Shown here piece by piece: positions 3,034 to 16,304 of a stretch of DNA of 64,000 bases. The number at the start of each line of letters is the position of its first letter. Positions within the stretch are counted from its first letter, which is position 1. Source of the DNA: Gammaproteobacteria bacterium (GTDB lineage: Bacteria > Pseudomonadota > Gammaproteobacteria > SZUA-140). The notes under the pieces were generated by a model. That model had not been told where the DNA came from. It did no database searches and saw only the letters and a program-made list of their open reading frames with translations. The stretch covers positions 2,013-66,012 of the forward strand of contig WGNS01000045.1 in the NCBI GenBank assembly GCA_016124415.1, read 5' to 3'. The translations under genes and the position numbers were made by a program.

Positions 3034-4716
3034 GTGACTATAGAGACGACATCCCGTCCCGAACACTTTTTGCATCGCATCATCCGGGAGGACCTCGAAA
3101 GCGGTCGCGTACCGGGGCCCATCGTGACCCGTTTTCCGCCGGAGCCCAACGGTTTCCTGCATATCGGTCACGCCAAGTCGATCTGCCTGAATTTCGGTCT
3201 TGCCGAAGATTTCAGCGGGCGCTGCAATCTGCGTTTCGACGACACCAACCCCCATAAGGAAAACCTGGAGTTCGTCGAGTCCATCCAGGCCGATGTCCGC
3301 TGGCTCGGTTACGACTGGGAAGACAGGCTTTATTTCGCCTCGGACTATTTCGAGCAGCTCTACGTTTTCGCCCAGGAGTTGATTCGGAACGGCGACGCCT
3401 ATATCTGCGACCTTACGGCCGAGGAAATCCGCGAACACCGCGGCACGCTGACCGAGCCGGGTCGCAACAGCCCGTATCGGGAGCGTAGCGTCGACGAGAA
3501 CATGGATCTGTTCGCGCGGATGCGCGCCGGCGAGTTCCCGGACGGCAGCAAGGTCCTGCGCGCCAAGATCGACATGGCCTCGCCGAACATGAACATGCGC
3601 GACCCGGCCCTGTACCGGATCCGCCACGGCGTCATCCATCATCAGACCGGAGAGGCCTGGTGCATCTATCCGATGTACGACTACACCCATCCGATCTCCG
3701 ACGCGCTCGAAGGCATTACGCACTCGATCTGCACGCTCGAGTTCGAGGATCATCGTCCGCTCTACGACTGGGTGATCCAGCACGTCAGCGTGCCCTGCCG
3801 GCCGCATCAGTACGAATTCTCGCGCCTGAATCTCGCCTATACGGTCATGAGCAAGCGCAAACTGACGACGCTCGTCGGCGAGAATCTGGTCGCGGGCTGG
3901 GATGATCCCCGCATGCCGACCATCGCCGGTTTGCGCCGCCGCGGCTATACGCCGGAATCCATTCGCGAGTTCTGCAGCCGGATCGGTGTGACCCGCTCGG
4001 ACAATCTCGTTGAGATGGGTATGCTCGAGGACTGCATCCGTGGCGATCTCAACGAGCGCGCGCATCGCCGCATGGGCGTGCTGCGCCCGCTCAGGATCGT
4101 ACTGACGAACTACCCGGAAGACGGCGAGGAGTGGCTCTCGGCCGCCAATCATCCCCAAAAACCGGAGCTCGGCGAGCGCAAGATCCCGTTCTGCCGCGAG
4201 GTCTACATCGAACACGAAGACTTCATGGAAACGGCCTCAAAGAAGTTCAAGCGCCTCGTGCTGGGCGGCGAGGTGCGCCTGCGCTACGGCTACGTGATCC
4301 GTTGCGACGAGATCGTCCGCGACGCTGCGGGCGAGATCAGCGAGCTGCGTTGCACCTATGACCCCGACACGTTGGGCGCCGATCCCGAGGGACGCAAGGT
4401 GCGCGGCGTGATCCACTGGGTCTCGGCCCGCCACGGCGTCGAGACCGAGGTGAATCTCTATGATCGTCTGTTCGTCGAGGAATCTCCGGACGCCCTGGAG
4501 GATTTTCGCCAGGGGTTGAACCCTGACTCCCTTCAGGTCCTCGAGGGTTGCCGCCTGGAGCCGGCCTTGGCCGACGTCCCCGCGGGCGAGGCCTTCCAGT
4601 TCGAGCGTGTCGGCTATTTCTGTCGGGACAGCGGTTCGGCCGATGCGAAGCGTCCGGCCTTCAATCGCATCGTGACGCTGCGCGACAGCTGGGCCAAGAT
4701 CAGCGCTCAGGAGTAA
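3034..4716 (+). CDS. glnS: Glutaminyl-tRNA synthetase
   Basis: [10 protein letters not shown]...[19 protein letters not shown] (HIGH motif) and VMSKRKL (KMSKS motif), 560 aa, GTG start. Confidence 0.95.
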
Positions 4717-14501: not shown

Positions 14502-15212
14502 ATGACGCAAACGGTCAAGAAGGGGAGTACGCAGATCTCAGGTCCCATCGTGGAAGGAATGCTTTCCGGCATCGGCGGTTTTCTCGCGATCTATATCACC
14601 CATATCGTGGCCGTTCGTTTCCTGGGGGAAGGCCATATCCTGTTCGTGACGTCGATGGGCGCGGCCGCGATGCTGATGTTTGCGGTGCCGCACAGCCCTA
14701 TGGCCCAGCCGTGGGCGCTCATCACCGGAAATCTGGTTTCCGCGGCGATCGGCGTCACCGTCGCGCGATGGGTGCCGGACCCGACATTGGGCGCCCCTTT
14801 GGCCGTAGGCGGCTCCATCATCGCAATGCAGGTACTTCGCTGTCAGCACCCTCCGGGGAGCGCAACCGCCCTCACGGCCGTTGTCGGCGGCGCGTCGATC
14901 ACGAACCTGGGCTACGGCTATCTGTTGACGCCGGTGTTGTTGAACATCGTGTTGTTGCTCGTGATCGCAGTGATCTTCAACTGGCCGTTCGCATGGCGCC
15001 GCTACCCCGCCGTATTCGCCGAATCACGCCTTGCCGAACAGGCGCGCGATGAGGACATCCCCATCAGCCGGGAGGCAATCGCAGAGGCGTTAAGACGGCA
15101 CGATACTTACATTGACGTAGACGAACATGATCTCGAACAGATCTATGTATCGGCCGCCCGGCTTGAACGCGACCGAAGCGGGAACGGGGCAGGAGAGGGG
15201 CAGGATGCCTAG
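14502..15212 (+). CDS. HPP-family integral membrane protein
   Basis: FAVPHSPMAQPWALITGN and RCQHPPGSATAL (HPP motif), 236 aa. The stop codon TAG is formed by the TA target site plus the first G of the MITE. Confidence 0.75.
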   Translation: MTQTVKKGSTQISGPIVEGMLSGIGGFLAIYITHIVAVRFLGEGHILFVTSMGAAAMLMFAVPHSPMAQPWALITGNLVSAAIGVTVARWVPDPTLGAPLAVGGSIIAMQVLRCQHPPGSATALTAVVGGASITNLGYGYLLTPVLLNIVLLLVIAVIFNWPFAWRRYPAVFAESRLAEQARDEDIPISREAIAEALRRHDTYIDVDEHDLEQIYVSAARLERDRSGNGAGEGQDA

Positions 15213-15403
15213 GGCCTGTCAACACTAATTTGAACGTCACTGCTGGATGCCATTTTTTCGTCCGGCAAGGCAGAGGGAGAGCCGTGTAGTGAGTCTACAT
15301 AAACCACCGATAACGCCGCCGGGCGGAAAAATGGCTCCAGCCCTTCGGGTTGTGGCTAAAATGTCGCCACAACAGAGGCGATCAAATTAGTGTTGACAGG
15401 TCC
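15212..15403. mobile_element. 192-bp non-autonomous element (MITE) with 22-bp terminal inverted repeats and TA target-site duplication
   Basis: The left end is GGGCCTGTCAACACTAATTTGA (15212-15233). The right end reverse-complements to GGACCTGTCAACACTAATTTGA (15382-15403), a 21/22 match. TA flanks both ends (15210-11 and 15404-05). The interior has further nested inverted repeats and no ORF. Confidence 0.75.
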
Positions 15404-16277
15404 TAAGCTCCTGATCGTGGGGTGCGGCTATGTGGGGAGCAGGCTTGCCGCTCAAGCGCTCCAGGAAGGGCGTTCGGTTTCGGCCATCGTTCGCTCGCCG
15501 GCACGTTGCGAGGCGTTGCGTGAGGAAGGCATTTGCGCGACCACTCTCGATTTGGACAGCCGATTGGAAAACGCGCTCGACACGGCGGCTCGAGTGATCT
15601 GTTACCTTGTCCCGCCGCCGTCGGATGGACGGGAAGACCCTCGCCTCTCAAGGTTCCTTGGCGCGATCGCGGAAAACGCCTTGCCGGAACGTGTCATCCT
15701 GATCGGCACGACGGGTGTTTACGGGGACGCCGGGGGCGCGTGGGTCGACGAAGACAGCCCGATCGATCCATCGACGGATCGGGCGCGCCGCCGCCGAGGC
15801 GCCGAGATTGCCCTGATCGGATGGGCGGAGGCACGGGATATTCCATGGATCATTCTGCGGGTTCCGGGTATTTATGGCCCGGGCCGTCTCCCGCTTGAGC
15901 GGATACGCGCGCGGACGCCCGTGCTCGACGAGGCCGAATCGCCCTGGAGCAATCGTATCCACGTCGACGATCTCGTCGGCGCTTGTATGGCGGCCGCCGA
16001 TACGCACGCGGTCAATCAGGTCTTCAACGTGTCCGATGGTTGCCCCACGACGATGACGGACTACTTCAATCGAGTTGCCGATCACTTCGGATTGTCTCGC
16101 CCACCTCAAATACCCATGGCTTCGGCCAGGGCCCGACTTGGCGAGGGCATACTGTCCTACCTCGCCGAATCGCGGCGCATCTCCAATGCGCGCATGCGTG
16201 ACCGCCTTGGCGTGACGCCACGCTACCCCGATCTCGAAAGCGGGCTGGCCGAGATCGATGAAGGTATAAACAAGTAA
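15390..16277 (+). CDS. NAD(P)-binding SDR-family epimerase/dehydratase-like protein
   Basis: KLLIVGCGYVGSRLA (Rossmann GxGxxG), 295 aa. The present GTG start lies inside the right TIR of the MITE (see findings). Confidence 0.75.
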   Translation: MLTGPKLLIVGCGYVGSRLAAQALQEGRSVSAIVRSPARCEALREEGICATTLDLDSRLENALDTAARVICYLVPPPSDGREDPRLSRFLGAIAENALPERVILIGTTGVYGDAGGAWVDEDSPIDPSTDRARRRRGAEIALIGWAEARDIPWIILRVPGIYGPGRLPLERIRARTPVLDEAESPWSNRIHVDDLVGACMAAADTHAVNQVFNVSDGCPTTMTDYFNRVADHFGLSRPPQIPMASARARLGEGILSYLAESRRISNARMRDRLGVTPRYPDLESGLAEIDEGINK

Positions 16278-16304
16278 CAAGTAACAAGTGACAAGTGACA
16301 AGTG
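16270..16304. repeat. Heptanucleotide tandem repeat (ACAAGTR) x5
   Basis: acaagta acaagta acaagtg acaagtg acaagtg. The first unit contains the last codons and stop of the SDR gene. Confidence 0.9.

Follow-up and report, generated by a model that had tools for sequence, protein, structure and literature searches.

The closest described systems to the element reported here are bacterial transposable elements of the miniature inverted-repeat kind (MITEs), together with the insertion sequences (ISs) of the IS427 group. MITEPsy1 of Pseudomonas syringae is mobilised in trans, and its transposition was caught experimentally (PMC3189936). RUP is tied to IS630, and the Correia and ERIC repeats have no known transposase; both Correia and ERIC affect mRNA stability or processing, and RNase processing of their transcripts has been reported (PMC2229807). 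ISs of the IS427 group measure 832-865 bp and carry inverted repeats of 13-21 bp and two open reading frames (ORFs) with a frameshift (Dziewit et al., PMC3281130), with a 2-bp direct repeat in all listed members but one (PMC3281130). Here we describe a 192-bp element in a single 64,000-nt stretch of a gammaproteobacterial genome (contig WGNS01000045.1; hereafter the window, whose positions serve as coordinates). The element lies at the junction of an HPP-family membrane protein gene and an SDR/NAD(P)-binding epimerase-family gene. With a probability that we place at about 0.88, it is a non-autonomous MITE, moved in trans by an IS5-family transposase, that landed in the HPP-SDR stop/start overlap. 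Seen directly are the element, its duplicated TA, loci without it, the family of partner ISs, the family-wide link to stop codons and pairing that has been conserved.

The element, its flanks and the two interrupted genes are arranged as follows:

15210..15211, unstranded: left copy of the duplicated TA target (from the sequence and the empty sites)
15212..15403, + strand: MITE of 192 bp, a shortened member of a ~265-bp family (family profile positions 1-159 and 232-270, nhmmer E = 1.1e-32)
15212..15233, + strand: left terminal inverted repeat, GGGCCTGTCAACACTAATTTGA, identical at 19/22 positions to the end of an IS5-family IS (L155)
15382..15403, - strand: right terminal inverted repeat, GGACCTGTCAACACTAATTTGA on the - strand, which holds the candidate starts GTG 15390 and TTG 15393
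15404..15405, unstranded: right copy of the duplicated TA target, followed by AGCTCCTGATCGTGGGGTGCGGC (from the sequence)
14502..15212, + strand: HPP-family membrane protein gene (Pfam PF04982 TM_HPP), with an ORF that ends in TAG
15191..15200, + strand: purine-rich Shine-Dalgarno sequence (SD) aggagagggg, the original SD of the SDR gene, now upstream of the element (SD/anti-SD duplex -7.8 kcal/mol)
15205..15228, + strand: former SDR start ATG, now a 7-codon mini-ORF, MPRACQH*, with its stop TAA at 15226-28 inside the left terminal repeat
15390..16277, + strand: SDR/NAD(P)-binding epimerase-family gene (PF01370), with an intact ORF whose first 3-5 codons come from element sequence

The left terminus matches the reverse complement of the right terminus at 21/22 positions. 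A preliminary description of this DNA had reported these 22-bp termini, the flanking TAs and a set of internal hairpins, all of which are present in the sequence and in a pairing check. The 19-mer core of the repeat occurs at only two sites in the 64 kb window and at none in 100 shuffles. The 3´ end of the HPP gene reads CAG GAT GCC TAG, in which T and A are positions 15210-11 and the G is element base 15212; the sequence thus bears out the earlier proposal that the HPP stop was rebuilt as TAG from TA and the first G of the element. The element has no transposase gene within its 192 bp, and tblastn with the partner transposase found no match in the window. The same HPP-element junction, with an identical HPP gene, was observed in an independent assembly (a Logan contig from SRR10063241), which ends 68 nt into the element (L010 3709-3779). 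This contig end suggests a repeat or a polymorphic insertion in sample SRR10063241.

The insertion is best seen against loci that lack it. Close homologues of the SDR protein, 66-72% identical to it, are encoded on contigs that are syntenic with the window. The order TruB-NUDIX-TPR-HPP-SDR-PhoX-like-Fpg was observed in four loci (L016-L019), all without the element; a ~190-nt spacer at the HPP-SDR junction, which would have spoken for a resident sequence, is absent from all of them, and the family profile matches nothing in those loci. Their junctions are as follows:

L017: 8-nt HPP-SDR overlap ATGGGTAG
L018: 8-nt HPP-SDR overlap ATGAATAG
L019: 8-nt HPP-SDR overlap ATGGCTAG, read from ATG 3055; the gene caller's start lies further upstream
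L016: 16-nt gap

The three overlaps share an ATGnnTAG pattern at the same position. When the element is taken out together with one TA, the junction becomes ATGCCTAA, an octamer in which the TA stands where it does in the relatives, and the SDR gene then reads ATG CCT AAG CTC CTG ATC GTG GGG. The reconstructed N-terminus, MPKLLIVGCGYVG, has the length and pattern of its homologues (MTSVLIVGCGYVG, MGSFLIVGCGYVG and MNSFLVVGCGYVG). Removal of both TAs would shift the SDR frame and removal of one restores both frames; the TA is therefore a true 2-bp duplication. The 8-nt stop/start overlap and the single TA that had been predicted for the empty site were both found at orthologous junctions, the overlap in three of the four syntenic loci. 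An ancestral 8-nt coupling overlap ATGCCTAA, as reconstructed from these relatives, is well supported.

Elements of 808-815 bp between inverted GGGCCTGTTAACA(C/T)TAAT were recovered when viral contigs were scanned by terminus alone. Ten IS copies were observed, all with TA on both sides and with differing outer flanks. Their ORFA is a DUF4096 protein and their ORFB a DDE_Tnp_1 protein, joined by a frameshift at an A8 run; their fused protein matches NCBIfam NF033580, "IS5 family transposase", with 243 bits (cutoff 110). The window terminus agrees with the L155 IS end at 19/22 positions. In the partner ISs only ~15 nt separate the end from ORFA, and the MITE interior is absent, so the MITE has only its ends in common with the IS. 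In their size, short inverted repeats, 2-bp duplication and two frameshifted ORFs, the partner ISs provisionally resemble the IS427 group. One IS copy, L146a, measures 1033 bp compared with 814 bp (IMGVR_UViG_637000346_000002; L146 2296-2505) and has an unrelated ~210-bp element nested in it, which shows inverted repeats (CCTGATTAGCCCTGACC...) and a duplication of TAAACTAT. Four viral-contig matches to the GTCAAC variant of the window terminus were set aside as chance, with no TA flank, family similarity or transposase.

The element belongs to a widespread family of uniform length. Exactly one copy is found by the family profile within the 64 kb window; the further copies and the matching transposase that the preliminary description expected both exist, in other organisms. 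The search pattern AGGGYCTGTYRAC-N110-122-CCCTNCGGGYTG matched at least 120 metagenome stretches and four viral contigs, and the family-wide counts given here and below (lengths, flanks, identity, stop codons and pairing) hold among the matches listed. The complete copies measure ~260-279 bp in 89 of 102 cases and mostly 264-268 bp. The right flank, which the pattern leaves unconstrained, is TA in 82 of the 102 copies, with flanks of the form YTA on the left and TAR on the right, and the median pairwise identity of copies is 74%. The profile matches the window copy over positions 1-159 and 232-270 only, which marks this copy as a shortened member that lost ~75 nt from the distal second hairpin.

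Of the matches to an 18-mer terminus in a scan of reference genomes, two are true relatives (L005, L007): Ca. Thiodiazotropha has an element of ~295 bp, and a Chromatiales metagenome-assembled genome (MAG) has a full copy and two solo right ends. The seven other matches were due to chance. Plasmid BLAST located the element interior in Methylophaga and Halomonas, and a further search with the Halomonas copy showed that Azotobacter and a P. aeruginosa plasmid carry full copies. The named hosts are Halomonas, Azotobacter, Methylophaga, Ca. Thiodiazotropha, the Chromatiales MAG and the P. aeruginosa plasmid. Clustering of neighbouring ORFs among the matches listed gave no recurrent neighbouring gene family, the clusters being spurious ORFs that overlap the element. 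Rfam 15 gave no relevant match, either at gathering thresholds or at permissive ones (E <= 10 for the window element, E <= 1 for five homologous loci), a phage collection gave no match, and no description of the family was found in the literature searched by terminus sequence and keywords.

Several copies show individual features. In the Chromatiales MAG (L007), a diverged full copy (2613-2805) and the two isolated right ends (1322-1354 and 3429-3463) lie within 4.6 kb in one orientation; the first solo end is located just past the stop codon of a gene and the second ~65 nt past one. The copy on the Methylophaga frappieri IncP plasmid (L011 2974-3134) comprises the left end and module 1 and then stops abruptly, which looks like truncation by rearrangement. 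It adjoins an unannotated 451-codon glycine/serine-rich ORF and lies upstream of transfer genes, the next annotated genes including a TraX family protein. On metagenome contig Ga0316190_10001653 (L087 7024-7065), the sequence TA GGGCCTGTTAACAGGCCC TA, an 18-bp palindrome in which the two termini are fused directly to each other, is located 2 kb from a full copy. It may be the footprint of an excision, or an element that has collapsed.

Read inward from either end, TA and the terminal G of the element give TAG throughout the family. Because every family member starts with G beside TA, an upstream stop codon is rebuilt as TAG, and stop codons are tolerated as landing sites. The frames that run into the 170 TA-flanked ends among the matches listed differ in the ORFs that end there:

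TA+G (TAG) frame: ORFs of at least 80 codons at 61/170 ends, of at least 150 codons at 44/170
second frame: at least 80 codons at 23, at least 150 codons at 8, of 170 ends
third frame: at least 80 codons at 29, at least 150 codons at 16, of 170 ends

Several copies in the same set have a gene end on both sides, and about ten lie between a stop codon and a co-directional start 4-14 nt further on. Copies are located on stop codons at a frequency far above that expected by chance. The tolerated rebuilding of the stop may be the cause of so many copies sitting exactly on stops. The insertion in the window is a typical landing site, of which the 8-nt overlap is an extreme form. A count of ORFs reading outward from the element ends was discarded as uninformative, since GC-rich antisense frames are open by chance.

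The interior of the window element consists of one complete hairpin module, a central hairpin and the remnant of a second module:

15242..15341, + strand: module-1 long hairpin, with loop motifs CAAGG...GGAG...AACGCCG conserved across the family
15341..15349, + strand: central CCCTTCGGG hairpin, family-invariant
15349..15373, + strand: module-2 stump, GTTGTGGC/GCCACAAC; compared with the 265-bp consensus, a deletion has removed ~75 nt of its distal hairpin

Arms 15249-15266 and 15318-15335 are complementary at 89% and arms 15349-15356 and 15366-15373 at 100%. RNA folding, which had been proposed as a check, gave a very stable rod: the + strand folds at -110.4 kcal/mol compared with -57.6 +/- 4.2 for shuffles (z = -12.6), and the - strand has z = -9.3. 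The 265-bp consensus is a pseudo-dyad in which the left half (+ strand) is homologous to the right half (- strand), and the profile matches both strands of every copy. Each half comprises a terminus, a long stem whose sequence varies, the conserved loop motifs CAAGGCGCG and GCAACGCCG, and a small distal hairpin; the halves join at the invariant CCCTTCGGG, which in the aligned copies always lies a constant 115-117 nt from the left terminus GGGYCTGTYRAC.

The pairing is maintained across the family. In 60 non-redundant copies, compensatory double changes were observed in 63 of 78 predicted pairs, paired cells reach 91.7% compared with 66.5% in shuffled alignments and 33-46% with slid partners, and the covariation score is 0.62 compared with 0.17 when shuffled. 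In an alignment of 71 non-redundant sequences, G-U is more frequent than A-C on the strand that reads inward from each end, with 161 and 64 in module 1 and, on the opposite strand, 110 and 58 in module 2. This excess is consistent with a single-strand structure that reads alike from either end. It is modest and falls at homologous positions of the two halves, and it could also stem from inheritance or from quasi-palindrome correction in replication. The orientation of copies relative to abutting ORFs shows no bias among the matches listed (30 left and 22 right ends). The pairing may be kept up for transposition, at the RNA level or by the mechanics of replication, and the conserved hairpins, as single-strand structures, probably serve the element rather than the host.

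On the proposed mechanism, a non-coding MITE would have been moved in trans by the IS5-family DDE transposase of the ~814-bp partner ISs and inserted at the TA within ATGCCTAA, the 8-nt overlap of a translationally coupled HPP-SDR pair, with duplication of the TA. Upstream, the HPP stop would have been rebuilt as TAG from TA and the element G. Downstream, the SDR gene would have been cut off from its ATG and SD, leaving in frame only GTG 15390 or TTG 15393, inside a rod of about -110 kcal/mol. The SDR frame is indeed open from GTG 15390 to 16277, and the database protein for this gene (P0001) begins at TTG 15393 with MTGPKLL.... The preliminary description had credited the element with donating both a start and an SD. 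The open frame from GTG/TTG in the right repeat agrees with this; the SD does so poorly, as the GAGG lies 11-14 nt upstream of GTG/TTG, its duplex is predicted at -5.8 kcal/mol where the old SD reaches -7.8 kcal/mol, and all of the start is held in base pairs, with an unpaired probability of ~0 for the start region in a folded read-through transcript. Repair of the SDR start, as modelled, appears only formal.

Footprint constraints were used to model a ribosome on the left arm. With a ribosome stalled on the HPP stop, TTG is predicted to be freed to ~0.9, the first base of GTG to 0.01 and its other two bases to ~0.46; with a ribosome on the mini-ORF, GTG is predicted to be freed to ~0.66 and the SD stays paired. 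SDR translation probably depends on ribosomes that melt the left arm, either those terminating on HPP or those translating the 7-codon mini-ORF at the old ATG. Folding suggests that SDR translation is much reduced and, if it occurs, would depend on upstream translation. The mini-ORF MPRACQH* (15205-15228) retains an intact SD and could be a leader whose translation melts the outer stem. The preliminary description had also offered a terminator role for the hairpins. A promoter/terminator scan predicted neither a sigma-70-like promoter nor an intrinsic terminator within the element, and no T-run follows any hairpin, which leaves the terminator idea unsupported. A hybrid sigma-70 promoter built on TTGACA of the right repeat was dropped, there being no acceptable -10 downstream. 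At the far end of the SDR gene, five tandem copies of the 7-nt unit ACAAGTG (96% matches) extend from the last SDR codons across the stop codon (16270-16304).

Two other accounts of the origin of the element were weighed. The preliminary description took it for an IS630/Tc1-mariner-type or Correia-like MITE, which would have been moved by an IS630-family transposase. A TA duplication and a YTAR-like target are indeed features of IS630 as well as of the present family; TA duplication is common to the IS427 group and the IS630 type and does not discriminate between them. An IS630-family IS also adjoins a family member at a shared TA on two Azotobacter chroococcum plasmids (L014 3940-4275 and L015 3940-5400), and this IS was considered as a likely parent until its ends were read. 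They are unrelated to those of the MITE (GTGTTATGACAC.../GTGTCTCAACAC...), and the IS lies once on the left and once on the right of the MITE, an arrangement that suits two elements with a common CTAG target better than a parent and its offspring. The pair is best read as two CTAG-preferring elements: both seem to favour CTAG, and the MITE end makes a new CTAG. No IS630-type element with the MITE termini was found in these searches, and the sole transposase-bearing elements bounded by such termini are IS5-family ISs. Correia repeats of ~24-26 bp reside in Neisseria and have termini TATAGTGGATTAA..., unrelated to the termini of the present family (GGGCCTGTYRAC...), which occurs in gammaproteobacteria and diverse metagenomes. 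Judged by its termini, the family is of IS5 type and the IS630/Correia assignment is wrong, and movement by an IS630-family transposase is accordingly rated as very improbable. Still harder to credit is that the 192 nt are native to the HPP-SDR operon, as a structured RNA or a regulatory spacer, and not an insertion. The very stable fold and the strongly conserved pairing, with compensatory changes across homologues, would suit such an RNA. However, the sequence is absent from all four syntenic loci, and these empty orthologous sites refute a resident RNA; the homologues stand in unrelated gene contexts with no recurrent neighbour, the copies are TA-flanked, the termini are common to an IS, and Rfam gave no match.

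The preferred reading, insertion of an IS5-type MITE, leaves several accounts of its consequences. The SDR gene may have been effectively silenced and be turning into a pseudogene, with the in-frame GTG/TTG a coincidence, an outcome that we consider possible but doubtful. The fully paired start and SD and the SD spacing of 11-14 nt agree with it, and of the three frames that lead outward through the terminal repeat, chance leaves one open. The SDR ORF nevertheless remains intact over 295 codons and is 66-72% identical to orthologues; this point is qualified by the terminal repeats, which at 21/22 identity indicate that the insertion may be too recent for visible decay of the SDR gene. It is unlikely, if conceivable, that the structure of the mobile element was selected to limit harm to the host, the rod joining the two ends and so keeping stop-start coupling or SD-start spacing; by analogy with ERIC and Correia elements, the hairpin might on this account also stabilise or process mRNA. 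Several observations lend themselves to it: stem sequences vary while pairing is kept (double changes in 63/78 pairs), the strand that leads inward from either end has more G-U than A-C, stop codons and tight operon junctions are hit repeatedly, the footprint constraints expose TTG or GTG, and ERIC is co-transcribed with its neighbours and changes mRNA stability (PMC2229807). Against it, the surplus of G-U is small and, as it falls at corresponding positions of the halves, may be inherited, quasi-palindrome correction in replication could keep the arms complementary without selection, copies show no orientation bias relative to abutting ORFs (30 left and 22 right ends), and the SD is paired under both footprint constraints. 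The most far-reaching version is a speculative one to which we give little weight, namely that the whole family is a "translationally transparent" transposon with a preference for stop codons and operon junctions, whose fold was selected to rejoin the flanks of the insertion on the mRNA. If this were true, stop/start coupling or SD-start spacing would survive an insertion of 190-265 nt, and the structure of the element would be adaptive in keeping damage to densely packed operons to a minimum.

Several points weigh against the insertion of an IS5-type MITE with the consequences proposed here. Only a single copy of the element is visible in the window, and tblastn revealed no IS5-type transposase in the 64 kb window or, among the matches listed, in the surroundings of the metagenome copies. 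The empty sites were read in relatives with a protein identity of 66-72% and not in a sister strain, and the IS427-group label derives from shared features, not phylogeny. The effect on SDR expression is a prediction from folding alone; the SDR gene is intact, and the insertion may be harmless or the gene expressed in another way. The intact ORF is compatible with either a recent or a tolerated insertion and does not decide between them.

The locus is a clean natural experiment in which a 192-nt hairpin entered a classic 8-nt coupling overlap and left the upstream gene untouched. What remains to the downstream gene is a start other than ATG, hidden within a stem, and annotation pipelines will call this start and miss the insertion. 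The family is now tied to IS5/IS427-type transposases, which opens questions on how MITEs choose and survive at the ends of genes. Other testable questions are why the interiors keep their pairing and whether long hairpins preserve coupling. The search pattern is ready for masking these repeats in metagenome assemblies, where contigs may break at them. Of wider interest than the single insertion are the regeneration of stops and the conserved pairing at the level of the family.

In its mode of action, the element works like the classic TA-terminal bacterial MITEs (RUP, Correia and ERIC), and its termini place it with IS5-family derivatives such as MITEPsy1. Among eukaryotes, the Tourist MITEs of the PIF-Harbinger group have transposases related to the IS5 family and a T/A-rich target containing TA; they differ in a 3-bp TAA/TTA duplication and have no sequence relationship to the window family. 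RUP/IS630-Spn1, Correia (NEMIS) and ERIC likewise have a terminal TA and repeats, form long stem-loop transcripts, and lie between genes or at their ends (PMC2229807). Unlike the window family, they have unrelated termini, measure 100-170 bp and are confined to one genus or family (PMC2229807). The ISs of the IS427 group, for example IS1248 and ISPpa2, are similar to the partner ISs in size class (832-865 bp compared with ~814 bp), in their short inverted repeats and duplication of 2 bp, and in having two ORFs that overlap and a frameshift motif (PMC3281130); the window element differs from them in lacking a transposase and in having an interior that is not derived from an IS. MITEPsy1, which like MITEPsy2 is a different element from that of the window (PMC3189936), is alike in being small and non-coding, with terminal repeats that match an IS5-family IS and a TA within its target (CTAG or YTAA). 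In contrast to the window element, MITEPsy1 is 100 bp long, with a 4-bp duplication, termini GGAAGGTCTGAAAAAGCC, a narrow host range and no two-module pseudo-dyad interior (PMC3189936). Compared with MITEPsy1 (PMC3189936), the window family makes a 2-bp duplication, is of another size, has an interior of two modules and is very widely distributed.

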